From Schmidtea polychroa (lineage: Eukaryota): a stretch of DNA of 64,000 nt. The DNA lies in assembly GCA_044892525.1 (NCBI GenBank), contig CM097886.1, positions 134,664,001 to 134,728,000 on the forward strand, read 5' to 3'. A program made the position numbers and the translations under genes. Below are positions 4,349 to 64,000 of the stretch, one piece after another. The first letter of the stretch is position 1. The number at the start of each line of letters is the position of its first letter. The notes under the pieces were generated by a model that ran no database searches, was not told the DNA's origin, and saw only the letters and a program-made list of their open reading frames with translations.

Positions 4349-5096
4349 TGTTTGGTTTTAAATTGAAAGTCGGGTATCTCTCTGACTCCTCTTGTTCTTA
4401 TTCAGCGAAATAACTCAAACCCAACACAGAATAATTTTTATTAAATCTTGATCACAATTACAATTTGTCACTATTTGCACCTTTATCTTTCTGATAATTT
4501 CCACTCGATAAGATAGAAAACCCAAGGGGTGATTACCTTTTCTGGTTCGAGTCTTACTATATTTCTTCTTCTTCTTCTTTGTTTTCCTTTTTTTCTTCAA
4601 CCAAATGGCGGCTTGGTCACTTCTGAGGTCTCTTTTTATACTTTTCATAAGAGGCCAATTATCTAGAAACTTGCACTAAATTATCTTAAATCAATATTTT
4701 TGGGTTTCTAATTTGTTAACTCTTGATTAGACCTCAAAATATTCCTCTTTTTATCTCGCTTCTCGGGTCTCGCTGCGAATCAGGTTTCCTATGGCGTTCG
4801 GGTTTCCCATGGGCTCGGGCTTCCAATTGGCTTGGGTTTTCCATTACCAATTAATTAATTTTAATTAATTTGTTTTTTCGCATTCACTTTCCGTGTGAAC
4901 ACCTTATTAAATTTTTATTATAATTTCTGAATTCGCCTATCAATTTGGCGTTCAACCATACCCGATACCCCCGTTCAATATTGATTTTTGATTTTTATTA
5001 AATTTTAATTAATTTTGCACTTTTATTGATTTTATCCATTTTTTGTTAAGCTTTACTTTTATATATGAACTTTTGGTTTTTGTGCTAACCCCAACA
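4349..5096. mobile_element. solo LTR (same family as 1709 and 61357)
   Basis: TGTTTGG...CCCCAACA termini, perfect TSD CTAT; the left end and the internal GGGTTTCCC repeat block align with 61357-62418. Confidence 0.88.
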
Positions 5097-8451: not shown

Positions 8452-8955
8452 GGCAACGCTCTAGTATAGGGGGGCAATATAAATATAAATAAAAATTAAT
8501 TAATTGATTATAAAATATAAAATAATATATGTAATTTAATAAAATATAATACATTCTAACATATTATATTATACTTATATTAACATATTATATTATATTT
8601 TCAAAGGAAGTTTGCTCTTTGAAAAAAAACTACCTTCACGTATCGACTTTCTGGAACATCGCATAGGACATCGCCAAATAAAATTGTCGGAAATTTCACT
8701 CTTTTTATTTAATTTCATTATTTTTCCGCAAGCACAAGTATATTGACTCGCAAGCACATTGTTCGTTTGCAAATAGGAAATAATACTCACTGGGTCATGG
8801 ATCATGTCAAATAAGTCGAATATATTAGTTATCTTCATGGGCGTTTTAAAATTAGTTGTTACTTGTCTAAATTTATCCTAATCAATTATTTTATAATCAA
8901 TTAATTAATTTTTATTTATATTTATATTGCCCCCCCCCTATACTAGAGCTTCGCC
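8452..8955 (-). mobile_element. internally deleted Merlin (IS1595/ISXO2-like) DNA transposon
   Basis: About 65-bp TIRs beginning GGCAACGCTCTAGTATAGGGGGG, 8-bp TSD GCAAAGCT / GCAAAGTT; ORF 8593-8838 is a Merlin N-terminal Zn-ribbon (CACGKIM...WRC..C..KSIREGSFFSKSKL). Confidence 0.88.
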
Positions 8956-9604
8956 GCAAAGTTTTTAATTATTGTTTCTCAAGCACTATAATTATTGTTA
9001 TTTTGCTCAACTCGTTATTACTGTATTTCTTGATTTTTACTCAAACACATGCTAATTGATTAATAACTCTATAATAATTAATAAATTCCCACATATTTTT
9101 TACTTTACATTGTATATACATAAAATAAAGATGTACATATAAAATAAATAAGCCACAAGAATTAAATGATCAAAATTTTTAACGATAATCCCATCAATAG
9201 TCAAATTTAATACACATAAAATAAAATAAATACGCTATAAGAATTAAAATAGTCAAATCAAAATGTGAACATCAATAATTAAATTAAATCACAACGATTC
9301 GACAATTAGATATAGTTCATGCAACGACGATTTATTGACACTGCTCTCCGGGCTGGATTGGGTTGGCTTGTTCTGAGGGCTCTATATAAACATTTACCCT
9401 GTATTTATTTGGACCCACTCTATAATATTTAGTGAGCTCGAATTCCTTTATTGCTCGGCCCCTGTCATCCAATATTCCTCACTGGACCGTCAAGGTAATG
9501 TCCTCATTACCTTTATCACTGAGGACTAACTCTATTTCACATTCGTTTATGTACATTTTGTCCTCTGGAATCCATTCCTCAATGCTAGATTCATAATATC
9601 CCCA

Positions 9605-10054
9605 TTATTGACGCGTCTCCCAAAATGTCTGCATATTTCTTTCTCTGTGATAATTGATTTTCCTTTGTCGATGATGAAGTTCGGCTCTTCTAATGCAAAA
9701 TTTGGTTCTGGTCCAAGTCCAATTATATCTACACATTTCTGATCCTTCCTCGTTTTCTGGTTTCTCGATATCTTGCATTTCTTCATCTATTGAAAAATAT
9801 TCTTCATCTGAATCCAAATCGCATTGTGGTTCTTCTCCGTTGTTGCTGCTGCATGCTCTGTGCTCTTTCTTGATTGATGTTATTTGTGGTTTGTCTTCTT
9901 TTATAAAGATGAGATCATCGTCGCTGTCGCTTCCCATTAATTCATCCTCGAAAGTTCGTCTACTTCCGTCTTTATTGAATTTCAATTCTCTTTGTGAGGG
10001 TTCGATATATATATCTTCCTCAATTTCTCCTGGCTCATCACTGTTTTCTTCCAT
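9605..10054 (-). CDS. acidic low-complexity accessory ORF, unknown function
   Basis: 149-aa D/E/S-rich ORF with ATG start overlapping the stop of the exonuclease-like ORF; more frameshifted coding-like sequence continues to about 9300. Confidence 0.4.
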   Translation of the reverse strand: MEENSDEPGEIEEDIYIEPSQRELKFNKDGSRRTFEDELMGSDSDDDLIFIKEDKPQITSIKKEHRACSSNNGEEPQCDLDSDEEYFSIDEEMQDIEKPENEEGSEMCRYNWTWTRTKFCIRRAELHHRQRKINYHRERNMQTFWETRQ

Positions 10055-11366
10055 TGACTGAGTTGATGGCCGATCACACTGTTACCTTTCTGAAATGCTG
10101 TCATATCCCATCTTATATCTTCCTCCCACTGTTTTTCTACAATATTGTATATTACTTTAGTAATCAATGTTGTGTCTTCAGACGAAAATGGCTCGGATTT
10201 TTTGAGGATGTTGTTGACTGCTCTATCTTTTTTCCATTTAGGGTGTGCTGCAATTACTTTATACGCAAGATTTGAGAGCTTGATTTTATGTGGTGCTACA
10301 TTTTTTACAAATGAGCACATAAATATATCCTCTGTCAGTTCCCTGGCTCCCATAACATTGTATAGATCCAACGTCAATGTTTTGAGTTTTTTTATTATTT
10401 TGTATCCTACAATTATCTTTCCCACTAATAAGTTCTGCACATCCACCAATGCCTGATATTCGTCCTCGTTTCCTCTAATTCAGGGGTTCTTAACCTTTTC
10501 AAACTTATGGACCCCATAAATATATAATTGGTACTGACGGACCCCTGAAATGTTAAAAAATTAATAAATTGATAGTAAAACACATACATTTTTTAATAAT
10601 TATTTATAAATTTGTTTATTCAGCTTCAAACAAAAATAGTAGTTTTTTGTAAATAGTGCCGCGGACCACTTGGAACCCGTTCGCGGAACCCCTGGGGGTC
10701 CATGGACCCCAGGTTAAGAACCACTGATCTAATTGAATCTCTGTCTGCCTTCGTCCTTTCTGAGTAAAAGTGTTGAATTTTCGTACGTGGGGTCACTTTT
10801 TTATTATATACAATTTCTCCCCTGAAGTTCCTGATACAAATCTCCACGGGTCTGAGATTGTTATTGATGTCTCCTACTTCTTTGACATCCACAAACCTGA
10901 TTGCTCGTTGTCTTTCCGGAATGGGTAGTTGTTGGTGTGTAAATGACATTTTCTTAGATATGAAATCCTGGTGCATTGTGATTTTTGATGGAATGATTTC
11001 AAGCTCTTTGAAAGGGTTTGGTATAGTTGGGACGTACAGGATTTCAATTGCTATTATGCAAGGTAAATTATTCATTTGTATTAGGAGATTATTAAACTCG
11101 TTTGACATGCTTCTGTTGTTTTTGAGGGTTTTGATCACCACTATACAATTGCTTGTTGTAATTATGGGGATTCTTTGCTGACATATTGAAACTTCCGTTT
11201 TTGTAATATGAAACAATATTCTGTGCGGAACTTTTCTCCCTTCGCTTGCTGCTATGTCCGCATTTTCGAGCGTTTCATAGGCACCAATTAGATATCGTAA
11301 TTTTATTCTCCGAGCCTCATTGAGTTTTATTTTGTGCATTTCTCTTTCTTCGTTCTCGCACTTCAT
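9982..11366 (-). pseudogene. REX4/ISG20-like DEDDh 3'-5' exonuclease-fold ORF interrupted by a hAT MITE
   Basis: Removing 10481-10726 plus one TSD joins ORFs 10626-11366 and 9982-10449 in frame (...RDSIR|GNEDEYQALVDVQNLLVGKIIVGY...), giving 376 aa. Pattern FVDVKEVG..VEICIRNFRGEIVYNKKVTP..LLVGKIIVGY..FSSEDT..IYNIVEKQWE parallels REX4 as recalled (VAMDCEMVG..RVSIVNQYGKCVYDKYVKP..MLKGRILVGH..HCSIQDA..LYVMVKKEWE). Confidence 0.78.
10481..10726. mobile_element. hAT (Charlie/Buster-like) MITE
   Basis: TIRs CAGGGGTTCTTAACCT / AGGTTAAGAACCACTG (15/16), 8-bp TSD CTCTAATT / ATCTAATT. Confidence 0.92.
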
Positions 11367-11473
11367 TTCGTTGGGGATACATACTTGATTGGGGAAGCTT
11401 CTGATGGTAATTGGTGTTCCATCTGAGGTGATCTTGTTTTGAAGATTTTTATAGAAGCTATGATATAGTGGAC

Positions 11474-12010
11474 TTAGTTTTGTTTGGGATTGAGTTGAAT
11501 TGGTTGTTGTTTGGGATTGGATCTGGATTGTACGGTATTTCTTGATTGCATTGTATTGTTTTCTCTAAAGAAATAAAATAAATATACATATTGATAGCGC
11601 ATTTGAGGTTTTACATTATGCGCTTTGATATAAATAATATTGATATATGTGAGTTTAAATAATATTATTGACCAATTAAAATCTTTTGAATTATTAATAG
11701 ACCAATGAGGACATTGTGTATTGTCCTGGTATATATTTATCCAAATGAAAATACCCTGGTACATTTCTGACCAGTCGGTGCCGATGCCGCTGCCTTTTCC
11801 ATTTGTATTTTTGTAAACTTGAACGCTAGTAACTATTGCTAAAATTGCAAATGATAACACACTCGTAGCTATTACGTAAAAAGGCCATTGTGGCTTACTT
11901 GCTTTATTTTGAAAAGCTTGTAATTCATTCCAGTTATTTATAATTATTGGTTTCCCTGTAGGTAATTTTATCAGATTTCGCTCGAATTTATTGTTTAGGT
12001 TTGTGTGTAT
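11474..12010 (-). CDS. ORF with one hydrophobic (TM-like) segment, continuing from the protease C-terminus
   Basis: The frame of ORF 11474-11860 is open upstream to about 12010 (..LNNKFERNLIKLPTGKPIIINNW..PFYVIATSVLSFAILAIVTSVQVY..); it is one frameshift away from the protease frame. Confidence 0.4.
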   Translation of the reverse strand: MHTNLNNKFERNLIKLPTGKPIIINNWNELQAFQNKASKPQWPFYVIATSVLSFAILAIVTSVQVYKNTNGKGSGIGTDWSEMYQGIFIWINIYQDNTQCPHWSINNSKDFNWSIILFKLTYINIIYIKAHNVKPQMRYQYVYLFYFFRENNTMQSRNTVQSRSNPKQQPIQLNPKQN

Positions 12011-12420
12011 TGGCTAAATGTTTTTATGCTGGAGCCGTTTGTGGCTGTTAGTGGTTTTTTTTTGTTTTTTGGATTTTTGTACATGTATTGTGGCAGTAGT
12101 GATATTAAAGATCCTGTGTCCATTAGAAAGTCAGTGCTATTTGTGTGCACCAAAAATGTATTGTTTTTTTCACTGAATATGGGTGCTATCAACAGTGACG
12201 GTTTTTGTTTTCCTGCTATATCTTGTAATATTCACAGGGTTTTGTGCATTTCTATGCTTTGTCACCGAATTTGTTGTGGAAATAGCAATAGTTTTTGTTT
12301 ACAAAATCATTTCTTAATTCTTTTTCTGGGCTATTGTTTTGGTAGTTGTTGTATCGTTTTGGGGAGTTTGACCGGTTCCACATTTTGCTTTCAACTTGCT
12401 TTAAATTCTAATTAATCCGT
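11995..12420 (-). mobile_element. Gypsy (Mag-like) gag C-terminus and aspartic protease fragment
   Basis: CYFHNKFGDKA*KCTKPC gag Zn motif at about 12235-12290, then FLMDTGSLISLLP...LTATNGSSIKTF protease (ORF 11995-12192). Confidence 0.82.
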
Positions 12421-12719: not shown

Positions 12720-13900
12720 AAAAATGCTTTAAAAATCAACTTCAGTGTGGTATATTTTAAAGCAATTGTTTACGTATAATACCACTTTAGAATCTGGACA
12801 CCAATACGCAGATTCTTTTCGAACTCCTTTCTTTCACAATTTTATCTACGCATTCCATCAGGAAATGCAATCTGTCCAAGTTACCATTATCGTTTTTATA
12901 AATTATAAATGCATTTAGACAGCACATCGATTAATCGAAGAAAAATCATTTTATAAAATTTTTTCAATCTATTGCGTGCTAGTGTATATGACGTCATTAA
13001 TCCATCTCTTAAATCAACATCGCCCATATTTTTATTATAATCATCGACAACTTTTGGCTTTTCTACAGAACTCCCTCTTTTTATAGTCATAATTTTTTCA
13101 TCGTTATGAATGGAACTAAGAAACAATACGTCTTTTCGATCCTTCCATTTCACGAGCATTATTTTACCTTTATATCTAACTATATGCTCGTTTTTTTAAT
13201 TCATTGGATTTCCAATTCTATTTTTTCTCATCGTTCCAACAATATCTGTTTTATTATCACATAACATTTCAACTAACTTGATTGACGTGTACCAATTATT
13301 TAAATAAATTTTGTAACTTATTTAGGATATGATGGGTTAATTCTATAACAATTCGTTTTGATTTTTTTTCTCATGATAATTTAAATCTTAATTTGTATCT
13401 TTTCCTGTGTGTAAAATAATATTTTGAATATATCCAGATTTACTTTCACTCAAAACATAATTTTATTCCAAATCGAGCCCTATTTTTGAAATATATTGCT
13501 CCCATGATAAATTGCATTTCCATAATAGAAGTGACTCGCACATGCTTATATTTCGCTCACTAAAATATAAAGTTTTAAATTTTTCTTTAAAATTATTGAT
13601 AATTGGGTCTATTTTATAGGTGTTTATTAGAATTATTGGAATTGAAAGTTGTATTATCTACAAAATGTAAAAATTTTACGATAATCCCTTGTAAAATAAA
13701 CAGGCCTAAAAATTTTCATTTCAGCTTCATTAGTGTCATACCATTTTCGTATTCTTGAACGTGGTTTCAGTTCAGGATTGCTATCAAAAAATTGTTTTGC
13801 ATACAAATTTGTTTGTTCCTTGATTAGTTGAATTAATTTTTCATTTAAAAATTTTTCAAGATATATAGCAGTGGAACTTTTCTAGGAAATGAACGAAATG
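12720..13900 (-). mobile_element. piggyBac (PGBD4-like) transposase relic
   Basis: KWKDRKDVLFLSSIH..KPKVVDDYNKNMGDVDLRD motif; Cys-rich tail remnants (YWCPDSK) near 12790; boundaries approximate, no TIR found. Confidence 0.8.
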
Positions 13901-23446: not shown

Positions 23447-24640
23447 GTGGGACAATATTCGAAAATGTTGATCTCCGGTAAAACTGAGTTGTGTATTTTT
23501 GAGCGTCCGTCTCCACAAGTAGTAATTGAAAATGGAGTATTTGATGATATATTTCCTATGAATTCAATTACTGATTCAAGAAATGATGTCGAATTTTTTG
23601 TTAACGGTTCACAGACTGAATATTTAGATTTGAATGACACTCTATTATCCATTCAACTGAAGGTTGTAGATTAAAAGAAGAAAGATCTGACATGTTTCAT
23701 ACTCTATTTAAAGATGTTTTTCTAGGTTTTAATAATATCAAAATCGAAAGTGGGAACAACACATATGTACACACACCTTTAATTGAAACAATTTTTAACG
23801 ATAATGGAGATACAAAAGTGTTTGTCTTGCGCCAATGGGTTATGGGAGTAAAGATTTTAGGAAAACATGGATTGCGAAATCAAGAATGTTTTCAATGTGT
23901 TCATTACAACTAGATTTTGTAGATCATCCTAAATATTTACTTCCAGGAGTTAATGTACATATTCGTATGAAGAGATGAGACTCAACATTTAGTTTGGCTA
24001 CATCTGTAGCTGTAGCATCACCAAAATATCAGTTGGTTGATGCAAAATTAATGGTTCGCCCTGTACGAGTTGAGTCATCAGTGTTGGTAGGCCATCACAT
24101 TTATCCTATCGAAACCAAAGAAATTGTTGCCTTTGCAATAAGTAAAGATTCATCTTCATTTTATCAAGAACAAATATTTTGTGATAAACGTTTGCCAAAT
24201 TTTATTCTTGTAACCTTTCAATCAGAAGCACAATATAATGGTTCGTATACAGAGGCCAACTCAAAATTCGCACATTTCAGTATAACTTCTTTAACTTTAT
24301 CGAAAAATTCCAATTATCTTGAAACATATACTCAGGATTTCGACAACGATAACTATGCTGCGACCTATATGCAATCTATAGTTCGAAATATGGGTTATTT
24401 AGATAAGAATTTGAATTATGGAATCGACATTGTAGATTTTAAGACTAAATATCCTTTCTTTACATTCATTTTGGCTTCAGACTTTAATTGCAATCTAAGT
24501 TGATTGCCACAAAATGGAAATCTGAGACTTGATATTAAATTCAACAAGGCTTTAACATCTCCTGTATATGTAATTATTTATGGAGTTTTTGAAAGCGAAA
24601 TACAGATTTCAGCAAATCGGACAATTCTAGTTTTAACAAA
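23447..24640 (+). pseudogene. Polinton major capsid protein (double jelly-roll)
   Basis: ELCIFERPSPQVVIE..VEFFVNGSQTEYLDLNDTLL; FHTLFKDVFL; KYLLPGVNVHIRMKR; GNLRLDIKFNKAL..R; split over ORFs 23447, 23692, 23994 and 24504. Confidence 0.82.
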
Positions 24641-24682
24641 GATGAAGTATGGAGTAAGTTTACTTTCTGATAAACGATTTAC

Positions 24683-25033
24683 TTGATTACTTCTGTTCAG
24701 CTTAATCGTCTTGCAACAAATCTGTTTGGAGACAGGTTTTTAGTAGTTTATCCGCTGGATAAAATCCCTTTTCTTGAAAGTAACAATGCTATAATAGTCA
24801 ATACCCAATCCTCAAGTCTTGATGGCGGACATTGGCTAGCAGTTTTTGTTAAGCCTGAAAAGATTAAGGTCTTTGATCCGATGGGTTACTATTATCCGCC
24901 TCTGTTAGTATCAAAGTTGTCGAAATTATCAAAACCTATCGTGTACAAGAGAATTCGTTATCAAGAACCACTAACAGTTACATGTGGACAACATTGTATT
25001 GTTTGGTTATGTTTTGAGTTTAATAAATATTAG
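24683..25033 (+). CDS. adenain-like cysteine protease (Polinton PRO)
   Basis: IIVNT..GGHWLAVF..VFDPMG..YQ..TCGQHC: catalytic H, D, Q and C all present. Confidence 0.9.
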   Translation: MITSVQLNRLATNLFGDRFLVVYPLDKIPFLESNNAIIVNTQSSSLDGGHWLAVFVKPEKIKVFDPMGYYYPPLLVSKLSKLSKPIVYKRIRYQEPLTVTCGQHCIVWLCFEFNKY

Positions 25034-25183
25034 TTGGTGTTAATTTCTTTTTTTTCAAAAATTAATAAAATAACACAGTTTTTGTACAATATTTTATTAA
25101 ATAACAATAACAACTCTTTATATACAAATAATAGAATGTCTGTTTGAGGAAATTTGGCAGTTGTTGATTGATTTCACATATAA

Positions 25184-28100
25184 TCATGCAAATATATCAT
25201 CATTATCAACAATATTTATACCATAGTGTCCATATGCAAAAATTTTGTTCCGACCCACCCATACCCTTTTATCATCGTTATTTGACAGAGCCAACTTTGT
25301 TGATTTAAATGTGTAAAGTTGATGATTTTTGGACCCAAACCTCGTTTGTATGACTTTAGGTATTTCCATTCCATTAAAACAGTCGATGATCTATCTCAGT
25401 TTCATTCAATCTAATACCTTTGGCGTTAATAGTTTTCTTTGAACCACCCAACAAACTATAAAGCTTCGGCCGAAGAAATATCCATTCATCATATATGACT
25501 CCCTTACTTTCATCCTTAAACTTTCCTTTATCAGAATCCAATCTTCTGTTATATAGAGGATGAGACGAATTATAATTAGATGTATCCAATAGATTATCTT
25601 GGATCATAGCTTCTAATAATGATTGCAATTTAAGGTTCTTAATTTCCAAGAAGAACGAATCCGTATCCCCTGCTGCTATATTAATCTTACAATTGAACTG
25701 TTCACGATACTTTTGTAGTTCTATATACTGCAGCTCATACATTCTTAGTTTGGAGAGATCTAAAACTGTTTGTCCAATATACGAAGGTCTATCCAAACAT
25801 ACAACATCAGGGTTCATAATTGCAGCTATTAAATCATCTGCAATCTTTATACTTCCCTTGAAGGTTGGTTTTGATGAATATGTTACTGCTGGGCCTTGGG
25901 TCGGGTCATAAGACATTTTCAACTACTAGGGGATGATAGCCCTTAATGCACATACGGCATGCCATCGTTCCAAGGGACCCTTAACGAAATGCCCACACGA
26001 TCATACTTCGAGCATGACACCCATGATTCGCATCTATGATTCTATGATTCCATGATTCTATGAGATATCATCGGGTGGCTATTATGATTCTATGTGAGAC
26101 TACCTTTCAGGTCAGGCGTGATTCGATCGGTTAGAATGCGTGTAACTGATTATCTAGTTCTAGTCGTGGCTCATGCGAATTCGACTATTGATCTGTGCAG
26201 TTTTATCTACAGGTAACTTTGTGCGTGGTTATTATTCGAAGCGAAGATTTATGGGCGTGAATTCCCAGCCGCATGTGCGAGTAGTGTTATGATCGGGTGG
26301 CCAATGGTAAAAAGGAATTATCAACATTCCTGATAAGATTGACTCTCATGGCATTCACATCGCCAAAAATATTTTTATTGCGCCTACTAGTGATATATCA
26401 CATAAAAGTGCAACTTCAATCTTTATAAACTCGAATTTTTTGGACGAGGGGTTCCTACTGTAATTTGGACTTTTTGTCAGCCCCCTCGACTCCGAGTTGT
26501 ACCTTGAAATACATGTTTAACTAAGGTAAAGTGATGTTAGATAGCGACTACCAGTTGGTTTTAACATGATTTGTTTGAAGCACGTTTTCCGGGGAAAACA
26601 CCATTTACCGTCCTTACAACTCCTTGATGATACTGAAATTCTAGCAATAACGTTCGAAAGCTCTGTGAAGGACGAAATCGGCATTACACGTGATTTTCCA
26701 GACGATTATAACGACGATAGGTGAAAGTCGAGAACTATAGATTTCTGGGGTAACACAAGACGAACGATATTTCGGTCACTTTAGTCATTGCGAAGGCTCT
26801 CGAACTACGTTTTAAAAATTCATACTGATTTAGTCCAAACATCTTTTACTTTATTGTTCTGAGTCTTATTTTCGTTCCTGTGGCGACAGATCAGTGAGGA
26901 AACCCCCACAATGACCCGATCCCAACCACTGCGCTGCTGAAGTAACATCCGACCTTCTGGCTAGAGGAACAACCAGTGTCCCTCGAGCTGTGGCCAGCTG
27001 AACCTCAGATTCGCGGAATGCATTAAAATTTCATAAAACATGATCATATTTAAATATCGAAAAATCATAAGCATTATCTATAACATAAAAATTTATCTAA
27101 TTTATAAAAACTTTAAATTAATCAAATGGCAAGCAAGGAAAACACTTTTTTCAAAATATTTAATTTAAGAAAACTTCCATTTAATATACCAATCATATTC
27201 AAAATATTTAACTTAAGAAAAGTCTCTATTTCATAGATCATTCATATAAATACAAACAAAATTTTACTTAGTTTCTCAACAATTGTTTTCCCTTTGCGAT
27301 GAAAAATAGATCTCCGAGTGATTTGTTTCCTTGAATTAGTCCTTGAATTCCTCGAAATGTTTTGTAAATTCTTAAAAAATGGTTGGGTTAACACTGAAAA
27401 TTTTATTTCAGTGTCTCCCTTATATACTTAAGTTTGTGTTTGTGTTTGTTTGCGGACCAATCAAAATTGAGCGCTGTTTAATTATTTATTTTAATTCGAT
27501 TTCTTTGTTTTTTGTTGGTTTTCTTAGTGTTTCTTTATTTTTTATTATTTTTCTTATTAATTATTTAATTTTTACATTATTTTACTATTTTTCTCGGTCT
27601 TTTTGTCTTGATTTTTCATTTTTATTTTTTGTTTTAATTTTCTCTAGTCAATTTATTATTATTTATTTCTAGTGTTTATTTGTCTGGGTTTTAATTTATT
27701 TTCTAATTTATTTATGATTTTTATATTATTCCTTAGTGTTTTCTCTTTTGATTTTTGATTATCCTAATTTCTTTTCAGCCCAACAATACCATTTTTCTTT
27801 GTGAATTGCACAACCTTAAATTCATCCTCTTCTTTAAATTTTCCACTGCTTTTCCATATAAACTGTTGTTTAATAGTTTATAATATCCCTTCTCCAGTTC
27901 AGATGTTGATTGAGCCCTCAATTTGGTGTTGGCTTCCACATATTTCTTGAAAATAGTTGATTGGTTAAACTTGATTGCCCGATGTATAAATGTTACTTCA
28001 ACTCCTATAAACATACATTTTCAATAGTCGCCAATGAATTACATAGTTTTTCTTCGGGTAATGTGTTCACAGAAGCTTTCCACTTTTGTTCCTTCTGGAC

Positions 28101-30250
28101 ACATCTTTTCTGGTGCAACAGGTAAATCGTCTAATAAATCATGAATTACATCTGGAATATTCATATCAACCTCCAACGTATATCCATATGGTAAGTTCTC
28201 TAGGTTTGTTAATTTACACTCTTCTAGAATGGATCCATTCAAACTTTCCATATGGCAAACTTTGACTTAGTGCCCATCCATACAAGTTATTTATATCGAT
28301 ATATAATAACTATGTATTTTCATCTCTGATGGCTTGATGTTTGTTAACGAAAGTCATACCTTCTCGAATGCCAGCTTCATAATAATTATACATTTCATTA
28401 TCTTGCAACAATTCAATAGGTCTATCCAATGACATTAATGCCGATGCCTATGTCATTCCCGAAAAAATTTAAAGGTTCCAATCCATTATGGGCTAATGAT
28501 TTAGTTCTGAATTGTTGAAAGTAATCTGCTAAAAGATATACATATAGTCATATAGTCTAAAAGTTTTCACATCCGGTTTCAGACCATATGTTCACTGCTT
28601 TATCACATGCGGTTTGTGTCACTCCTTCCCAAATTGGTGGCAATTCTCTGGTTTCTCGTAGAACTTCCAGGCTTGTGGCAAAATTGTATGGAAAAATACC
28701 TTTTGAATCCTGTATTGTTCCCGTAAATGCTGCATTTGGTAAACTGTTTAATGTTTTTACTGCATTATACAAAGATTCATTTACAAACTGATATGAATCA
28801 ATGAATTTGATCTTTATTTGCTTACAATGCCGAATAACCGTAAGAAATTTTTCGGATGTTGTCGGAATACAACTCAAACTCCAGTGAGAAAATTTATTTA
28901 TGCCATATTTTTAAATATGATGCATATCATAACCTCTCAGGTTATGAAATACTACTGGAAGCACTCGACGTACTCTTCTTGAAAGATTACATTTTCCACA
29001 AGCCGCACCTAAATATTTCCCGCTGAAATGATCATGATCTCGAACCAAATGATCATTGTGTTCCTTACATATGTAACAAAATGATTGCATATTAAAAGAG
29101 GATTGTTCCGCTGGACTGACAATTAAAGGTTGTTTACCATTTCTCTGGTAATAATGATTTACTTTATTTTCTGCTATTTCCTCTACTTTCTTTAAAAAAT
29201 CAAATATGCAATTTAACCCAATAAATTGAAAATATGAGGAAGCTCAGCTAAAATTGTTTATCAGCAAAAGTCCAGCTGAAATCGGTAAGTGTTTCTGATG
29301 GTATTGCTGATCTTCTGGTAAAATAGATTCGAAATCAGCATAGATTACGAAAGGTGGAGTCACTTTCTTCGACCAATCTTTGAATCTGAGCTCTTTTTCT
29401 GTTGGCATAACGTATAAAGTTGTCCCAAGCTGATTTTTCTTACATAAAGCCAGATGTCTTTCATATGTTAATTGTCTCCGAAATCCATTTAGACAATTTA
29501 CACACCATATACATTGAATTCGAACTGTACAATTATTGGATACATGACAGTTCATTAACCTGTTGATATTAGGTACTCCAACATAATGATAATTATTACT
29601 TTCACTTAGTAACATTGGTGTAACATCTTTTACCTTTGTCCTCCGAATTATGTCTATATTCGGATGTTTCATAATAACATCATCATCATTATTTAAATAT
29701 GTATCATCCGAATCGTATGAGAGAACATTGATCGCCAATCCTGGATTTTGATATTCAAATTTCTTTATGTCATTCAATGTTGTCGGAGGGTTTTCCGAAT
29801 CGTAATTTAATTCTTCATGTACCGATAATATTGTGACGGTCTGTTACGGTTTTCATGAATGTCTTCGTATTTCAATATAGACAAGACGCCGTAGATAAAA
29901 CACAGGTTGTCTTGATTTTGGATGTTTATGATTTTATTCTTTAATGATGCAGGGGTTCTTATATGTCGATGTCCAGACAATCGACTAATTTCGACAAACT
30001 TTGTTATTTTAAAATTAACCTCCAGTATCTTGTTAAGACGCCAACTACTACCCAACTCCGATCTAATAGCAATTTTCTCATTCAAACTTTCGATTCCTTC
30101 ATCTAAAAAGTAACCTGTTAATTTTGTGGCTCTGTTTGAAATTCTTGCAATCTTCAGCTCACCGTCTTTGACGAATTCTGCATTGATCCCGAACTGTATC
30201 TTAACGCTCTTCATTTCATTTATACAAGCGTTTAATTTTATCAACAACGT
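25184..30250 (-). pseudogene. protein-primed DNA polymerase B, interrupted by a solo LTR
   Basis: QDNLCFIYGVL; IYADFESIL; HDHFSGKYLGAACGKCN..FHNLRGYD; KLLNNSLYGK; GDTDSFF; GKFKDE; RPKLYS; DDKR. Removing the LTR restores LCNSQRKMV|TYSSKPTFK. Confidence 0.92.
25887..27785. mobile_element. large (1.9 kb) solo LTR-like insertion in pPolB
   Basis: TGCTGGG...CCCAACA termini, 4-bp TSD TTAC / ATAC, in-frame rejoin of pPolB on removal; contains an ATGATTCT microsatellite near 26020-26095 and a T-rich right third. Confidence 0.72.
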
Positions 30251-30642
30251 TGGTGGAATAACTATTTTTTGTATATTGTATCTGGATATGTCCAGTGTGA
30301 TAATTCTATGTGATCTGTATAAATCACATTCAATTTCCGGTTCATCTGATATTCCTGCTCCTGTTTAAAAGTCATCAACTAGTGAGAAGTGATCTGCAGT
30401 CAGTACTATCACTGTCAACATTGGATATATTTTCGTTTTGATCATTGAAATCTAGTTCTTCTATTATTTCAAACAATCCATTTATTATATCAATTTCTTC
30501 TTCAGATCTTCCAACTTCTTCGCGCCTTGAACTTCCAGCTTCTTCATGCCTCGAATCTTTTTCCTACGAATCCATGATTTCAATTATTTCTGAGTTCGAT
30601 ATTGCATTTTCTATTTTCTCCAATCTTGCTTTTTATTTTTAA

Positions 30643-31800: not shown

Positions 31801-33068
31801 TTTGTCTGTGCGGTCAGCAATTTACCATATAAATAATAATTTATTGTATGCTTGCTACTTGAAGTTGAAAGTAATATAATTTAGTCAAAAGTTTTCAAAG
31901 CAGAATTCAAACTTGTAGAATTTGAATTTTATTTGATTAGTGAACCAGTTTGCAATTGGAAAAATATTACCGGTTATTTTCGATTTAAATTAAAGGGTGT
32001 TTTCGATTTTACAAATTGAAATTTATTTTGAAAGCTTTTCTTATTGTAAATTAAACATAGAATCGAAACTGTTATAAAATTAATACTGGAACGTAATAAC
32101 ATCATTAAAAAATTAATTTAAATGTATTATTATGATAAATGTAAATGAAACCGGGTAAAACAGATAGCTTATTATAAAATTTATTAAAATTTATTAAAAA
32201 ATAGTATTTGTTACAATTAATTATTTAATTAAAATTTAATTTATTAAAAAATATATATAACTAACATTTATCATTTAAATCTTCCATATCATTGGCATGA
32301 TCCATATCGCAACATATTTTCTAAAAGAAAAACTTAATATGTATATATTAAATAAATAACGTTTACCATTTGTTTATTAATATTTGGCATTTTTCTTTTA
32401 GTTTGGTTGAATAATATCTGAAAGAAAAGAAAATAAATATTTAACAAGAGCAAAATAAAATCTTGTTAGATAAAAATTTATTGATTAATTGAAATTGAAA
32501 TTTAAATGTAATATTAAAACAATAGTTAATTATCTAAGCAACTATTGTTAACAACCAAATAGAATCTTCTAGAAATTTTTTATATAACCAAGAATATTCT
32601 TTTTATTCATAGATTTTGTTTATAGATGAATATTAACTAATTATCGTATCTAAATAGTTATTGTTACCAATCAACTAGAATGTTTTAGAACATTCTAGGT
32701 TGATCTAGAATGTTATTATTAATATGTAACTAATAAATATGAATTTGATGCAAGTTAAATTAACTATCAAAGTTTATAAATTTTTATTAAATTGACAAAA
32801 AATATAATGAAACGTTTAAGCATAGTTCTTAACCAAAAATGTAACTCTAATTTTTTTATATATTTCCAGTCACCATTTTCTTTGATCCATGGGTAAATTT
32901 TTGTAATTTCTTACACTGATCATTTCATATATTTTGGATGTTCATATGGATATGAAATAAGAATCTTTCTGACGTACATTAAGCTGACGATGATTTTAGA
33001 TCAACATATACCATCCTCAAACAATAATTCAAAGCGCAGAATTCCTTTTAAATTTAATATGAAGCCTG

Positions 33069-43019: not shown

Positions 43020-43517
43020 TCATGAATCTTGTGTTACTCCAACTTGTATAATTCCTTTTTTGAGTTTCAATATTTGGAAATAGGCTTCTCTAAAGTTACT
43101 GTTAAAAACACCATATATAATCGGATTAAATGCAGAAGCTGAAACACAAAGCCAATACATTCCTTTTTCAGGAAAATCTGTCATGAGCCCCGCATGCGTA
43201 AGATAGACATGCAGTGTATATGGACCCCAACATATAAAAAATACTATAAAAGACACAAACAAGGATAATATTGCTTTCGCTTCTCTTTTAAAACGAATTA
43301 AAACCGAATTTTCGAAAGTATTCGTTGATTTGGTTTTGCTTATATTTGATGCTTTTCTAGCCCTGATGAGAATCGTTATACATAATCCTATGTAGCAACT
43401 AAGTGCTATGATTGCTGGTACTCCGATGCTTAATGCTGTGAGTATGGCACTCATTGTTATATTAACATCTTCATCAGAATATATACACATGTACGCAGTT
43501 TCTTCATATTTGAATCC
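43020..43517 (-). CDS. terminal coding exon (ECL2, TM5-TM7, tail) of a class A GPCR, melatonin-receptor-like
   Basis: Phase-0 acceptor TTTAG|GGA at 43517; GFKYEETAYMC; TM5 P..Y; EAK..FFICWGP; NPIIYGVFNSNFREAY; no disabling mutations; upstream exons not identified. Confidence 0.88.
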   Translation of the reverse strand, partial: GFKYEETAYMCIYSDEDVNITMSAILTALSIGVPAIIALSCYIGLCITILIRARKASNISKTKSTNTFENSVLIRFKREAKAILSLFVSFIVFFICWGPYTLHVYLTHAGLMTDFPEKGMYWLCVSASAFNPIIYGVFNSNFREAYFQILKLKKGIIQVGVTQDS

Positions 43518-45714: not shown

Positions 45715-48700
45715 CTGCCCTCCTTATCAAATAGACCGTAACTGCAAAAATACACTTAGGAGATAAATAACAAAACGTGTTTTCAATTCTGCCAACCAGT
45801 TAACCTAAACCAATCATCCATTTATATTTGTTTGCATCTAGGCCTAGTGATGCAGTTTAAAATGCAGTTAGCAAATTCTGACTTAATTGGCTTAATTGGT
45901 TAATATTGCAGATACGGTCTATTAGCTAATAATGGTATAGCATACTGGCTATGGATTTACTTAGTAATAAAGCAGTAACTGACAATGAATCACACATTTA
46001 CACTAAAAATCATTTAATAACAAAACAGAAATACAGAATACACAGAAATACTGCTTGTATAGTTTCAAAACATTATCAAACAAAAGCATAAAAGCTTAAG
46101 AAACAGGTAAGAAAGTTCCTGCAAGGTCTGCAATAATTGGCGCTGATGACTATTTATAACTAAGTAATGATTGCACGGAATAATACTGTTAACGAAAAAA
46201 TACCCAAGTATTATTACCCAAGAATGACTGACTTCAAATCAAGAGTCCTGACGATTGCTACATAACTTTGCCTAAAGTACAATACTGACATACCGTTCTC
46301 ATAAAATATTACATGAAGTTAAAATGCAACAATGTACAGCACAAAACAAAACGAAAACGTGGTTCACAGTCTGCACAGCATTCTTGCCTAGCGATAACAG
46401 ACAACGTTCAAGTAATAAAAAGGCGATAACTGGCATCAACACCCAAATTGAATAGTTGACAATAAACAGCGTCAACTGACAATGTTGAAATGCTAAAAGT
46501 GATTTATAGCTAACGACAAGGGTAAAATAAACCAGCTGACAATAAACAATAACAGAACTGCATGCAGTTACCACAAAAATGAAATCCACTGACAAAAGCA
46601 AACTATAATAATATAACACAGAAAAATGCATGCAGGAAACAATGTCATTCAGCAACTACCAAGTCGGGAACATTTGCGACAGGTAAATCCTGCCAAAACT
46701 TCAGTCGAGTGTTGACCATCAAACCACCAAGTTTGTTGAGTATGTCATCCTTTTTAGCCTGAGGGACACCCCTGGCTTGCGATCTACATGGAGGCTTGGT
46801 AACACCACCTTTCAAGCATGCAGCTGTCAAGAAATTCAGCTGTTTATCCTCATCATTAAATGCCGTTTTATAGGCAAGACTCCTGCTGCCGCGAGTTGCA
46901 GTCACCATTACCATATCACTCAGGTAAGGTCTCGGAGTGGTACGGTTAATTTTATAAGTAGATGATGCATCTGGCCAGTCAAAGAAATTAGAAATTTGCA
47001 TTTCCTTCACAGAAGTTTTACTATTTGCGTCCTGAACGCAACAGACAAAGTCGTTAAAATCATACACTTTTCCAGCCTTTTTCATGCTCTGCTCAACCTG
47101 GTGATGAAAGTTATCGGCGCTCATAAACGTGTGGCCTGGTTCAAAAAATTTTAGCTCAATTCTGTGAGCAGAAATTTCCGCACTGTTAACAAGATAGACA
47201 AGGTAAGAGAATAAAGTCCAGTTTTTGTTCTGGCTGGCACAGTTGTCCAACCACAATGTAATTTCTTCAGCATCTCGCTGCGTCAAAAAGAATGCATGAA
47301 ACGCACTTACTAGATCTTCCTTTTTACGGCCTGCGACAGCCTCGTGACACAACACAGCAACTGACTTAGCAACTGGTTTGTCACCGAGTGGAACAAAACT
47401 TTCATTGAACGCAATTATACGCCGAGTGAAAAGTACAGTTTTAAATGATTCCATGCGTGGCAGCATAATGACCTTTTGTAAGTCAGCCGAAAAAAATACA
47501 TGTTTTGAGTCATCAGTCGTTGGTGTAGTACGGTCAGCTCTATATGCCTGCCTACTGTCATCAGCCCTCTTGATGTGAGTTTTCCACTTTGTACACATTT
47601 CACAACTTAAATCCAAATTATCTTTGGTGTGGTTATTAGAATGAATGTTGAAACTTTCACAAACTTCACACTCTTCATGGCCTAGTTTGGCAAACGAAAT
47701 ATCCATACTTTTAACTTCACTGCGATAAACCTCGTATGAACAATGTATGCCAGGATTTTTCTGCAGGAAATCCCGGTGCATACAACCAACAGTTATGTCA
47801 GAGGGCAAGTATCGTTTGTTAGGTGCATGCTCACGACGATAATGTGAAACACATGGACCAAAGGATTCAACATGGGCACGTATTGCAATGCGGTCAAATT
47901 TCTTATGAAGGTCAGAACCTCAGCCATCTCGCTTCGAGACAGCAGAGCCTGGACTGAGTGAATGCAATGCTTTCTGCACAACCGAGTCATTGTTCCTAGC
48001 AAAACCCAGAGTGGTAAGATAGAACAGTTTGCAAACTGAAACCTCTTCACCCTTATCGTTACGCATGAAGTAATGAAACGTATTAGAACGTTTTGATTCA
48101 CCTAGTGTCGTTTTGCGATCAACAGAATGGTGCTTGACGCCAGAACAAATAAATAAACGTCTTTCAAACCAGGTTAAGCTCCAAAAATCTGCATTCAGCT
48201 TTATGCGCTGAGCCTCATCAATTTTCGAGCAACATTTACGCTTGCAATTATTAGAGCATGGCACACGAATGGCGTGGGTTTCTACCATGTTCTCATGTTG
48301 TGCTTTCTTGCGCGATTTCGGAGACATCGTGTGACGTTTTCTCTTGCTCAGTCCGGTTTTTGGTAGAGGTTGAGCATGACCAGGAACACAAGATCCGGTT
48401 ATTGGAGACATTCTGGTAACAGTATCAGTATTGTCAAAAATGGGTGCTTCGGCAGATTCTGGATTAACTGCAGCATCACCAGCCTCGGGAGTTTCAACGT
48501 TCATCAAATCTGACACTGCTATGTCGCAGTAGAAATCATACGATGCAGTGTCATCTGTCAATCAATCAAAAAAATCAACAAATAAATTAGTTTGTCTTTA
48601 AGTAGGATATTAATTTATAATCACAGCAGTAAAATGCGCTAAAGATGATTATGCAGCGACTGTGATCTAACAGTACCAGTAAATTGTAAGCAATAAAACA

Positions 48701-50204: not shown

Positions 50205-51387
50205 GGTAATACTTAAGTTTTGGGGGGGGCTGAATTCAATTTGCCAATTACAATTAATTGATAAATATATCAAATCAGTAATATTGACAGGAATTGTATT
50301 TTTAATAGTATTAAATAGTACATAAAACATTTAAAAGTACATTTAAACATAAAACACAATCCGGAATAATTTTAACTAAAGTACGACTTTAACACATCAA
50401 CAAATAAGGTAAATTGATCAAGCAAATGAACACTTCTAACACTTCGATTGTACATAAACGTACCGAGATATTCAAAAAGATGCTCCCTTTTTACTGGGCT
50501 GGGCAGAAAGGTTTTCAGAGACCTCCACGCACGTTCAATTGTTTGAGTATGAATAGACCGATCAACTGGATCAACAAAATAATATTTGTGATTTACTGTG
50601 AAATGGACATATCCAAGTTCGTTCAAATGCCAGTACCCACGCCACATATCCGTTATAATCCGTGTACCCGGGCGAATATTGTTGCGTATTATATCTTCTA
50701 AATTTTCACGGTTTCGACAAACAGTTGATTTCAAGAATACCTCGCCGGTTTCTCTGCAAATACCGCCTACTATCCACACCGACTGCATTGCTAATACCCG
50801 GCCAACATTATATTTCCTTTTTATTAGATGAGTTTCATCAATTTCAACAGTATATCCTTCACCGCCGATCAAATTCAATCTTTTGTCCATAATTTTAAGC
50901 GTTGCCGCTCTTCTGAAAATTTTGAACCATGAAATTGCGGTTGGTTCACTTATACGACACTGAATCGACGCGAATCCAACACGAAAATTATGGGTGAAGA
51001 AATATGATAGTTGAAGCAATTAGGCGATTGAAATGTGAATACCATCAAAAATGGAATTCAGGAAGATGCTTCGTGACTGACGACACGTTCTCCATCGGAA
51101 GCGTCCATCTACTCCGGGGCGAGTTTTCCCCTTTTCAAAATTCATATTTGCGCCACAAATGTAACATGGTCTCTGAGCAATACTCAGCAATCCAAGCTCT
51201 ATGGCTAATCCGAAAGCTTTTTCTGGAGAGGAGGTTTTTTCACCCAATTCGAAGATATTCATGGGTTTTTTTTTCTTTTTTCATGCTTTATTTCTTTTGG
51301 TTGTTAATGATTCTAGTCAATATATTTATCAATTAATTGTAATTGGCAAATTGAATTCAGCCCCCCTCCCAAAACTTAAGTATTACC
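50205..51387 (-). mobile_element. Merlin DNA transposon, full length
   Basis: About 65-bp TIRs beginning GGTAATACTTAAGTTTTGGG, perfect 8-bp TSD TTCTTTTC. Confidence 0.93.
50372..51262 (-). pseudogene. Merlin (ISXO2/IS1595-like DDE) transposase with one in-frame stop
   Basis: ORFs 51020-51262 and 50372-51019 are in the same frame, separated by TAA; VEIDET, IITDMWRGY, VNHKYYFVDP, HTQTIERAW. Confidence 0.92.
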
Positions 51388-59798: not shown

Positions 59799-60179
59799 TA
59801 GTTAAACTCAGAATTAATGGTTATAAATAATTATATTATTTTATTTAATATTAATTATTTCAAATTGATGACAAAAATCAAAACTATAAAAAACTAAACA
59901 TTCAAAAAGTAATTAAAATATAATAAATATCAATTTTAACAATAGAAATTTGTTAATCATGACAAAGCTTTCAGATAAAAAAAATTTAAAAAATTATTTG
60001 CAAATTTTAATGACATTTTTTAAACGAGAACAGGCAGGAATCGGATATCATGTTCCTATATATAAATAATTTGATTTATTTATGTTTTCTCTAGACTATG
60101 GGATAATTTCAAGTGGTAAAATATCCAATTATTGTGATATAAAATTTGCTATTTATAAATATAAATGACAATTAATGAT

Positions 60180-63100
60180 AAAAACTGATAAAATTAAGTA
60201 TATATCTTTCTACCGATATTTTTCCGAATGATGCATATTTTGCAGCCTTTACACTACTCTTTTACGTCTTTTTCTATTGATGGCCAATAATATTTTAATT
60301 ATAATCTAGATAAGGTTTTCCTTGCAGATAAATGTCCTCCCAAGGCTCTGTCATAATATTGCATCAATAGTGCATCTTTATGTTTAGCCGGAATCATAAT
60401 TAATGCTTCATCATTTTTAAAGCATTTTTGTATTCCGCCGTGAGTTATATATTTAGTGTTTTCGTTTACTATTTGTTTCCAATTATTTTCCCTTTTAATC
60501 GTTGCTGCCTGCTCAAAAATTGCATTAATTGACTGTCACTTTTTTCATTCTGTAGTTCAACTATATCATTGGATGCATTAGATGCATTGAATATTGTACC
60601 TTCTAATGTCGCATTATTTTCCTATTTTCTTCAAGGGTATTCTTGTCATTGCATCGACTTTAGCGTTATGTTTTCCCACTCAATATTTTATTGCAAAATC
60701 GTATTCTTGGAGTGCAACTGACCATTGAATGAGTTTACTAGCCGAATCTCTGTGATTTATTAACCATTGAAGAGGATTGTGGTTCGTATACACAATAAAT
60801 TATCTACCCAACAAATATTGTCTAAATGTAATAATTCCATAAAATAGTGCCAAAGTTTCCTTTCATTTATTGAATATTTTTTTTGTGGTTTCAATGATCT
60901 CGCGTCTGATTTTACGTGATCTTTTTCACCTTATACTTTTTGGCTCAATACTGTCTCTAAGGCAACATTACAAGCATCAGTCATTAATATACAAGGTTTT
61001 GTAAAATCTGGACATCGCAATATAGGTGCTATTATTAATTTTTTCTTTAGTTCATCAAAAGAATCTTGCTGATTTTTGTTCAATGTAAACATTGTTTTCA
61101 ATAATGAATTTAACGTCTGAGCAATATGCGAAAAGTCCTTTATGAATTTTCTGTAGTAACTGGTCAAACCAAGAAATTATCTTACTTGGTCAACATTCTT
61201 TGGAATTGAAGATGCTTCAACTTTCTTAATATTTTACGGATTAGTTTGTAGGCCTCTTCGTGATAATATATGATCGACATACAGTAAATCTGATTTTTTC
61301 ATTCACACTTTGATCGCTTTATTTTTAATTTTGCACTCTTCAATCGCTTGAACACTTGTTGGGTTTTCAGTTAATTTAAGTCGGTAATTTCTGACTCCTC
61401 GTGTCCTTTAAATCAAAACAATAACTACCCAACGTATATTGGAATAACAAAATTTACAATCTTTTCTCAACACTTTACAATCAATAATCAAAGTTACGTT
61501 TGACCGATTCTCAGCACGGCGTTGATGCTTTGATAAAGATAATATTCACCTTTTATTTCTTTAGATTCTCTTGACCCACGTTTTCCTCTTTTTCTGTTTG
61601 ATTTGATTCTTTATCACCTTTCCGTATTCCTATTCTATATCTTCTTTTCCCTAATCTCCTTAATTCGTTTTTACCTCTCGACTATTCTCGATTCTTCTTA
61701 CCCTACCTGAGGCAAAATGCCGATTTGCTTTGATTTTCCCCTTCCTTATATACTCTTCGAAATCGGGATGACAAATGGTTATTGCCGAGCCATTCTTTCA
61801 CTTGACATTTGCTTCCACGTATCTGCTTCGGCTGTCACTCATAATGGTCCAACGAACAAAGATAGTTAATGGCCCGTCCGGCCTTTCTGCATGCACTATC
61901 TTCTCCTTGCTCTTTTCCAATTAATCATTGTGTCACGCTAATGGGCCAAAATCTTCCTTCTATTTACTTTTCTCTTTGTTTACCCAGTTCGGGTTTCCTT
62001 CATCTCTCGGGTTCTCCATTGGCTCGGGTTTCCCATTAGCTCGGGTTTTCTATTAGCCAATTAATTTATTAATTAACCTTTTCTTTTTTAACACATTTGA
62101 ATGCTTTTCTACCCTTTCTAACCATTTTCTAATAAATCCCTAATCATCACCTTGTTGACCATTAGCTAATCTATACCTGTCCCGTTTTCCCAATTCGATT
62201 TCGATGATTTTACAATTTATTGATTTTTCTCGGATTTCCCGATTCTTGCCTTTCATAACTGCTTTTGCCATTTCCTAATACTGCTTCCAACGTACTTTCC
62301 TTTACTATCGATTCTGTGCATGATCACGCTTTTATTTGTCTTTTTTCTTCACTTACTTTTTATTTAAATTATTAACCTAAATTTCATTTAAATTTATTTT
62401 AATTTACAGACCTCAACACACTGTTTCAACATCTTTAAGATGCTCCATAAAGTCGTTTGAAAATATAATTATGTTGACGATGTATAGTAACCTATGCTGA
62501 ATGTCTCTCAGTACAAAATTCATTTCTCTTTGAAATGTGGCTGGGGCTTCTGTTAAACCAAATGCTAAAATATTAAATACTTATAAATTTTAGCCATCTG
62601 AAAACGCTGTTTTCTTCTGTCTTCCTCTTTTATACCTTATTTAAATCAATAACAGTGAAATATTGAGCCTCCCCATCTGGTCAAACATTTCCTGTGGGTA
62701 TTGGGTACTTTCTATAATCAATTCAGAATCGTAATTCCCCGTCATTTTTCTTAACAATTACAATTAATGACGAAAATGATGATGAGCTATTTCGGATTAT
62801 CCCAAATTCTTTCATTGCATTCATTTGATCAATATCTGCTTAATCATTAAGCCTTAATGAATATGTATTATTCATTTTAATTGGAGTTTCATCCAACGTG
62901 ATTTCGTGCTTTAGAATGTTTAAATTATATTCATATTTCGCGAAAATATCTTGATATCTTCTCAATAGTTTGGTGAATTCATTTCGTTATATTTCTGTTA
63001 AAACTGTACTCACCACATTCGGTTCTTTGTAAATTTTAATATTTCTGGAAATTTTCTGGAAATTTTCTTTTCGGCTTCTACTGTCATTTGAGATAATTCT

Positions 63101-63326: not shown

Positions 63327-63468
63327 AGGTCAAGGTCAAATTTTAAGGTCAAGGTCAAATTTTTTAAGGTCGAGGTCAAGTTTTTAAAAGTCAAGGTCAA
63401 TTTTTTAAGGTCATGGTCAAATTTTTTAAGGTCAAGGTCAAATTTTTTAAGGTCAAGGTCAATTTTTC
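63327..63468. repeat. 7 copies of an about 21-bp unit AAGGTCAAGGTCAAATTTTTT
   Basis: Counted directly; minor variants. Confidence 0.95.
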
Positions 63469-63667
63469 CCCCTCGAATACATCAATTCAAATTTAACAAG
63501 GTTAGTCACACAAATTGAATTCTGAAATCAAACAAATGCATTTAATAAAAGGGGCTGGTGCGGTAGTTTGTAAATTTGGTTTAGTTTGAATATTATTATT
63601 TGATACATAGTTTTATTATTTACAATATTCAAAGTATTAATAACAAAGGTAAAGAAATAAATGTTTA

Positions 63668-64000
63668 TTAAATGTATATAGTATGATACTCATTAATATA
63701 CATTGAACATGCTTTACATTTGCGAACATTTGAATCATGGCATTTAGAACATACAATTACATGTCCGCAAGGGAAAAACAAAACCGATACTTGATTTTCT
63801 TTACAAATGTAACAAGTTAAATACATTTTCCTACCATCATTGAGTTTTTTCCTTAGCTTATTTTCAATCAATTCGGATTTCGATATCCATTCATAAATCA
63901 ATCTACTACTATATCCTGGTTCCAGCCTTAAATCCATACAATTCCAAAAGCATTCATTCAATGAATCATTATCTACTATTGCTTTGTCTAAATGCATCAA
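63668..64000 (-). CDS. C-terminal IAP/Mdm2-type C3HC4 RING finger protein (5' part outside the window)
   Basis: CYIC..VLFFPCGHVIVCSKC..CKAC..IYI* with the RING at the extreme C-terminus; frame open to the window edge. Confidence 0.85.
   Translation of the reverse strand: MMHLDKAIVDNDSLNECFWNCMDLRLEPGYSSRLIYEWISKSELIENKLRKKLNDGRKMYLTCYICKENQVSVLFFPCGHVIVCSKCHDSNVRKCKACSMYINEYHTIYI

Follow-up and report, generated by a model that had tools for sequence, protein, structure and literature searches.

The question raised by this locus is which protein was encoded by two minus-strand ORF pieces (10626-11564 and 9982-10479) in 64,000 nt of the Schmidtea polychroa genome (GCA_044892525.1, contig CM097886.1, positions 134,664,001-134,728,000 of the forward strand; this whole stretch is called the window in the following), and whether this protein belonged to the host or to a mobile element. 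The explanation favored here, with the balance standing about even, is that the pieces are the decayed remains of an accessory ORF for a pseudo-nuclease, which occupied the post-pol 'ORF3' position of a CsRn1-like Gypsy retrotransposon with internal deletion.

The interrupted ORF and its homologues

The minus-strand ORF is split by a MITE of 246 bp (10481-10726), which has 16-nt TIRs matching at 15 of 16 positions and is flanked by an imperfect 8-bp TSD (7/8 matching; copies at 10473-10480 and 10727-10734). For alternative TSD lengths from 5 to 12, at most four positions match. With short TIRs and an 8-bp TSD the element shows hAT-type features, and in view of the TSD length and the CAG-starting TIRs it is presumably a hAT-type MITE. 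It had been proposed in the first-pass annotation that removal of the MITE together with one TSD copy rejoins the ORF exactly in frame. Both the element and the 8-bp duplication were found, the latter as an imperfect repeat. The rejoining is borne out by the phases of the two flanking halves, which are compatible with a single original frame, and by two homologous proteins, P0001 and P0002, whose alignment with the halves shows no gap where the MITE is inserted. As these proteins match both halves and run straight across the MITE site, the halves belong to one protein.

The homologues were identified by a phmmer search of the 3′ half against 1.84 billion representative sequences, which resulted in three matches at E ≤ 0.001, namely P0001 (64% identity, E 3e-47), P0002 (63%, E 9e-47) and P0003, a Drosophila tandem-repeat protein that was dropped as spurious (29% over 50 aa). 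A word-index search found no homologue of the 5′ half (0 of 165 candidates), and another one returned only P0001 and P0002 (2 of 7,998 candidates). In a further search of this kind, the result was dominated by the acetyl-CoA carboxylase tail of P0001, with 459 of 7,998 candidates passing and a biotin carboxylase domain in 118 of the 120 matches listed from these 459. A tblastn comparison of P0001 with phages yielded no more than two records (E 3). P0001 and P0002 are the sole homologues in the databases searched; both are unnamed records without genomic context. Past the shared ORF, P0001 continues into an acetyl-CoA carboxylase segment, which is present twice, and the sequence that follows in P0002 is unrelated, with weak propeller matches. 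In P0002, moreover, the loop that follows the third strand is shorter by about 17 residues.

On the 5′ side, the long open frame begins immediately after a T-rich tract ending in AG (11565-11586, minus strand), a candidate splice acceptor that a simple pyrimidine score places among the best 26 of the 5,599 AG sites in the window. The 5′ part of the ORF (10896-11564, minus strand) consists of a 65-codon open stretch rich in Q, T, S and N, followed by the first Met at 11366 and about 157 aa. Its last ~80 aa share 55-61% identity with P0001 and P0002. The N-terminal region of roughly 150 aa that had been noted before the fold thus corresponds to these ~157 aa, for which no family match was obtained in Pfam, NCBIfam, PHROGs or other profile searches. 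A reading of this region as SGNH- or TIR-like gained no support from the searches: for SGNH/GDSL there was no Pfam match, and an hhalign comparison to a narrow TesA profile (12 of 80 fetched loci used, all ≥89% alike) stayed at shuffle level with low power.

The DEDDh-like domain follows in two parts on the minus strand. The first (10727-10895) contains the ExoI-equivalent strand, in which D is kept and E is changed to K, and the next strands, and the second (10084-10470) contains ExoII (D to K), ExoIII (H to F and D to T) and a terminal helix with the pattern Y..VE..WEE. Downstream of it, the same ORF is continued in other frames. An acidic low-complexity linker was located at 9737-10060 (minus strand) by tblastn with the P0001 tail (50% over 108 aa, E 3e-29), and the P0001 linker itself comprises 37 D+E versus 9 K+R in 119 aa. 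A C-terminal domain without a Pfam match occupies two further frame segments at 9368-9714 (minus strand), with an in-frame stop near 9481; here, residues 421-457 of P0002 match window positions 9478-9368 (38%, E 6e-8).

As P0001 and P0002 extend past ~10084, the original ORF comprised about 600-650 aa. The MITE is not the only lesion of this copy, as the stretch from there down to ~9368 also contains an in-frame stop and three or more frame changes. The end of the protein had been placed at 9982. This position was abandoned, since the homologues continue and are encoded in other frames down to ~9368, and the last ~33 codons before 9982, which match neither homologue, are out-of-frame filler. 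The statement that no other lesion is present holds for 11366-10084 only, and for the whole ORF the view that it was intact until the MITE insertion is unsupported because of the lesions downstream. Introns were ruled out as the source of the downstream frame changes, because the ~2.2 kb of coding sequence are colinear with P0001 and P0002 without spare length. In its present state, with MITE, frame changes and stop, the window copy of the ORF is non-functional.

Elsewhere in the window, a number of other elements were observed. A 56-nt match to the MITE interior (32177-32230, 80%) is AT-rich and may be due to chance or represent a degenerate relative. A non-coding element at 8458-8948 has inverted arms of 49 nt, which match perfectly and start in a G-run, and similar G-run ends with 47-nt arms flank an ISXO2/Merlin-like transposase at 50224-51366 (PF12762). 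Polinton-like debris at 23979-30364 includes an adenovirus-type protease match (PF00770, E 0.0012) and fragments that by eye, with no Pfam match, resemble a protein-primed DNA polymerase B. Long ORF remnants of 424 and 213 aa with a DUF7869 match (46645-48561, minus strand) are located in a block of higher G + C content that is enclosed by inverted arms of 39 nt (at 45712 and 49788), and they probably belong to a DNA transposon. Fragmented Gypsy RT/RNase H-like remnants were recognized by eye at 60100-62580 (minus strand), and a 17-nt repeat array at 62007-62057 recurs at 4763-4848, which suggests two copies of another element family. The only clear host gene piece recognized in the window is a rhodopsin-family GPCR exon (43020-43517, minus strand; PF00001). 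At 63341-64000, a 21-nt tandem array is followed by the end of an IAP-type RING-finger ORF (PF13920) running off the window.

Relationship to ISG20-type exonucleases and the catalytic positions

The origin of the domain from a REX4/ISG20-like exonuclease, which had been proposed by eye, was supported by profile searches against 177,635 PDB sequences. A profile built from P0001 1-264 and both ORF halves (A5) yielded ISG20L2 (E 1.2e-5) and ISG20 (E 3.2e-3) as the top two of four matches at E ≤ 10. With P0001 1-264 alone, the same two proteins were the top two of three matches (ISG20L2 E 8.4e-4, ISG20 E 1.4e-3), and the alignments to the ISG20 family are ungapped over 72-75 residues and span the MITE site. 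P0002 alone, in which part of the matched loop is missing, gave no ISG20 match, and the ISG20 matches were likewise lost with a profile dominated by the P0002 tail (A4). Each ORF half alone had no useful match in Pfam or PDB. The Pfam family RNase_T (PF00929), suggested earlier as a check, was not matched at E ≤ 10 by either half, P0001, P0002 or P0001 1-264, in scans whose HMMER filters let few matches above 0.1 through. The scans of NCBIfam and PHROGs returned no relevant match, and Rfam returned 0 matches for 7-14 kb of the window.

A search of the ESM Atlas with the 3′ half alone led to 3′-5′ exonucleases (score 0.93), with 24 of 30 matches belonging to PF01612 and 147 shared features, a lead that applies at the superfamily level only. 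A DnaQ-like profile of 11 sequences (E. coli DnaQ and 10 phage DEDDh proteins) did not recognize the domain, as the hhalign probability was 0.14 with shuffles reaching up to 8.2, and the hmmsearch scores were equalled by 18-58 of 200 shuffles. In the leave-one-out controls this profile scored 99+; the controls thus worked, and the affinity that can be detected is to the ISG20 subgroup of eukaryotes. Two AlphaFold models calculated from 3-4 sequences reached mean pLDDT values of 36.0 and 37.5, and fold searches with them gave no significant match; in one search from a poor model, several DEDDh chains (7yw5, 5z9x and oligoribonucleases) appeared in weak rows (E 0.37-0.9), which were not counted. 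Due to the poor models, the DEDD fold is deduced from sequence only.

The absent Pfam match, the models at pLDDT 36-37 without a fold match and the negative DnaQ-like profile are what would be expected if the ISG20 similarity were spurious and the ORF encoded an unrelated protein. This is regarded as very unlikely, given that the best PDB matches are two DEDDh paralogues, the better one with E 1.2e-5, that the motif spacing fits at both ExoII and ExoIII and that the independent language-model lead points to 3′-5′ exonucleases with 24 of 30 matches from the 3′ half. The domain is very probably homologous to ISG20L2 and ISG20. It is hidden from standard annotation, as Pfam misses the pseudo-nuclease family.

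In ISG20L2, the residues D183, E185, D267, H322 and D327 are described as catalytic and each as essential, and the chain in 7YW5 comprises residues 160-353 of this protein with the exchange D327A (PMC10899777). The motifs corresponding to ExoI, ExoII and ExoIII in the window are FVDVKEVG (10895-10872), VGYKIIKKL (10410-10384) and FSSED (10188-10174). In all three sequences (window, P0001 and P0002) the positions D-E-D-H-D read D, K, K, F and T. The catalytic alteration is therefore greater than had been assumed in the first-pass annotation, with four of five residues replaced in common. For ExoI, the retained D and the change of E to K agree with the earlier reading, the register being placed by extending the HMMER alignment by 16-18 residues outside the aligned stretch. 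The adjacent E that had been pointed out is not shared, being L in both P0001 and P0002. The proposed D-to-K change in VGYKIIKKL was confirmed, where D267 faces the second K of KKL. At ExoIII, the His is lost as described, with H322 aligned to the F of FSSED. The D of FSSED was rejected as the ExoIII Asp; it is E or S in the homologues, and D327 aligns with the T after FSSED. The alignment at ExoIII forms a second stretch of low score (1.6 bits), for which the Y..VE..WEE helix serves as anchor.

The same four replacements in all three sequences indicate that catalysis was lost before the copies diverged and not by decay at this locus. Since 88 of the 172 columns of the domain alignment are invariant among the three sequences, the invariant replacements show shared descent, not selection on these residues. 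Provided that the homology holds, the domain is almost certainly catalytically dead. A nuclease that is still active via a rearranged site, in which the lost ligands are substituted by the glutamate adjacent to the ExoI lysine or by the aspartate in FSSED, would be compatible with the ExoI Asp kept in 3/3 sequences and with the presence of both acidic residues in the window. This is extremely unlikely, as P0001 and P0002 have L/L and E/S at these two positions and any single change among the five residues is reported to abolish ISG20L2 activity (PMC10899777).

The residues R226, W229 and H262, which contact the RNA 3′-end in ISG20L2, align with Y, R/K and Y/F, respectively, and the W229 position also varies among true family members. 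As the equivalents are replaced, the canonical 3′-end binding is not kept, which weakens a simple model of RNA binding as in ISG20. The charge of the domain is mildly basic or neutral (K+R versus D+E of 31/25, 29/24 and 23/25 in the three sequences). With 59-64% identity to P0001 and P0002, the domain is better conserved than linker and tail (50% to P0001 and 31% to P0002), as constraint on the fold would give. In summary of the comparison with ISG20L2, ISG20 and REXO4 (7YW5, 1WLJ), the likeness consists of the ungapped match from the second strand to ExoII and the spacing of ExoIII and the terminal helix, whereas of D-E-D-H-D only the initial Asp remains, the RNA-contact residues differ and the domain is embedded in an ORF of ~600-650 aa beside retrotransposon gag and protease.

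Probable retrotransposon context of the ORF

Gag and protease motifs are located on the same strand as the ORF, 0.6-0.9 kb upstream of its first Met. The C-terminal zinc knuckle of gag, CX2HX9CX3C (12234-12287, minus strand), contains an internal in-frame stop, and the rest of gag is largely missing. This pattern occurs once in the six frames of the window compared to a mean of 0.02 in 50 shuffles, and it is described as a signature of the CsRn1 clade (PMC2582038). Next to it lies a truncated retropepsin-like protease stub (11998-12231, minus strand) with an LMDTGS motif at 12126-12109; the DTG protease motif has one match in the window versus a shuffle mean of 0.1. The knuckle region has no Pfam match and the protease stub none in Pfam or PDB, so that the assignment of the stub rests on motif and position. 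Directly after the stub, an ORF fragment with one hydrophobic helix (11750-12013, minus strand; helix 11878-11822) was found, which has a best 19-residue Kyte-Doolittle mean of 2.16 and no significant match in Pfam, NCBIfam, PHROG or PDB. It might represent the terminal part of a membrane ORF, env-like or other. Between this fragment and the acceptor-like site, three CCAAT-like repeats were noticed by eye (11600-11790), which could be a possible internal promoter.

The first-pass annotation had regarded the ORF as retroelement-borne. Knuckle and DTG motif make this plausible, while no LTR, primer binding site or pol was found. RT, RNase H and integrase are absent between protease stub and ORF, an interval of only ~430 nt that is too short for pol to fit, and neither an LTR pair nor a tRNA-Trp primer site was found around the locus, where both flanks are cut by DNA-transposon remnants. 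The region from gag to the ORF is bounded by a piggyBac remnant and another TIR element. The former is a piggyBac-like transposase remnant (12896-13195, minus strand; PF13843) on the 5′ side of the gag fragment. The G + C content is 0.31-0.38 over 9200-12400 and 0.24-0.27 in the adjoining blocks. A Burro-type giant element at this locus was considered and rejected, as Burro gag is described with CCHC knuckles (PMC6431247).

Due to the missing LTRs, primer site and pol and a window dense with unrelated transposon debris, the adjacency of gag, protease and ORF could be chance. The same pseudo-nuclease might then exist outside Gypsy elements, as a lineage-specific multi-copy host gene or as cargo of another element, with gag and protease brought next to it by nested insertion and with the acceptor-like site being an ordinary exon boundary. 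P0001 and P0002, which have no visible link to gag or pol, would agree with this. It is nevertheless considered unlikely, because protease stub and ORF are on the same strand, share one composition block and have no recognizable terminal repeats between them, because the ~2.2 kb colinear with the homologues leave no room for introns and because the homologues run on into different unrelated proteins. Such tails are expected if gene models fused dispersed insertions to neighboring host genes, and P0001 and P0002 are accordingly probable chimeric gene models joining dispersed insertions to different host genes. The ORF is likely linked to gag and protease, although this was seen at one locus only and the homologues lack genomic context, and that it is part of a Gypsy element is fairly probable.

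Proposed function and comparison with known systems

As part of a Gypsy element, the ORF would comprise an N-domain, an ISG20/REXO4-type pseudo-exonuclease, an acidic linker and a C-domain, and it would probably be read from a spliced subgenomic RNA. The element would have captured a host ISG20L/REXO4-type gene and kept its fold as a non-catalytic module. With lysines at two acidic metal-ligand positions, the pocket would no longer hold Mg2+, and the domain may bind the nucleic-acid backbone without cutting. The ends of element RNA or cDNA could in this way be shielded from host 3′-5′ exonucleases and small-RNA trimming. This shielding of nucleic acids is put forward as the function only tentatively.

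The dead DEDDh fold of a Gypsy accessory ORF might also serve as a protein-interaction decoy or scaffold without RNA binding, for example by occupying the partner site of host REXO4/ISG20L or of a piRNA-pathway nuclease. The long acidic linker and the remodelling of both catalytic and RNA-contact residues with half of the columns invariant would suit such a role. It is considered quite unlikely, as the change from acid to lysine at two metal ligands would fit a direct phosphate contact and as Maelstrom and EXD1, two DEDD derivatives without catalytic activity, are reported to retain RNA binding (PMC5408684). Backbone binding via the lysines is thus favored over a pure protein decoy. In Maelstrom and EXD1, which act in the piRNA pathway, an inactive DEDD fold has likewise been kept in evolution, which offers a possible functional analogy. 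They are host silencing factors and not transposon cargo, and no sequence match to them was obtained.

The domain had been noted as not known to be a standard Gypsy domain, and this has to be qualified, since DEDD accessory ORFs in LTR retrotransposons have precedent (PMC5408684). In the rotifer elements Juno and Vesta as well as in Athena/Terminon, an accessory ORF for a DEDD-superfamily exonuclease is described downstream of pol (PMC5408684, PMC6431247). ORF3 of the bdelloid LTR retrotransposons Juno and Vesta is RNase D-like and of the DEDDy type with intact catalytic residues (DEED), and it belongs to clades with CCHC gag (PMC5408684). The window ORF differs from it in these features, being ISG20-like and of the DEDDh type with replaced catalytic residues and lying next to a CHCC gag, which suggests a capture independent of the rotifer ORFs. 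DnaQ-like exonucleases are also mentioned among known accessory domains in a commentary (PMC6338049), and other cargo is described for the giant Gypsy elements of planarians (PMC6431247); the accessible text of PMC8532177 is not relevant to the question of exonuclease cargo.

With the CsRn1-clade elements CsRn1, PwRn1, Boudicca and Saci-3, the locus shares the CX2HX9CX3C knuckle followed by a DT/SG protease. For Boudicca and Saci-3 a third, env-like ORF is described, and the window locus has the membrane-helix fragment. By contrast, the pol, LTRs and tRNA-Trp primer site of the clade were not found in the window copy, and an exonuclease-derived ORF is not mentioned for these elements in the accessible text (PMC2582038). 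Likewise, no report of a DEDDh, ISG20/REXO4-type or inactive exonuclease in LTR elements was found in the open-access literature searched. Such an ORF may already be annotated outside this literature, e.g., in Repbase or in a planarian genome paper.

To our knowledge, few accessory proteins of animal LTR retrotransposons have a plausible counter-silencing role. In its fullest form, the reading would be that a family of CsRn1-like Gypsy elements took over an exonuclease of the ISG20/REXO4 type from the host, that the enzyme was inactivated, and that selection has maintained it as an accessory protein made from a spliced RNA and serving counter-defence; this is rather doubtful. If it is true, the pseudo-nuclease would shield retroelement RNA from 3′-end trimming and small-RNA silencing or jam these processes, and it would mirror the host's own dead DEDD proteins. 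If the ORF is conserved in a Gypsy lineage, it would represent a second, independent DEDD capture by LTR elements after the DEDDy ORFs of rotifers, and the first inactive one found in print. It is a candidate for addressing whether pseudo-enzymes are employed by retroelements to counter the RNA surveillance of the host, and if it instead belongs to a host gene family, it would still represent an unannotated pseudo-nuclease family missed by Pfam.
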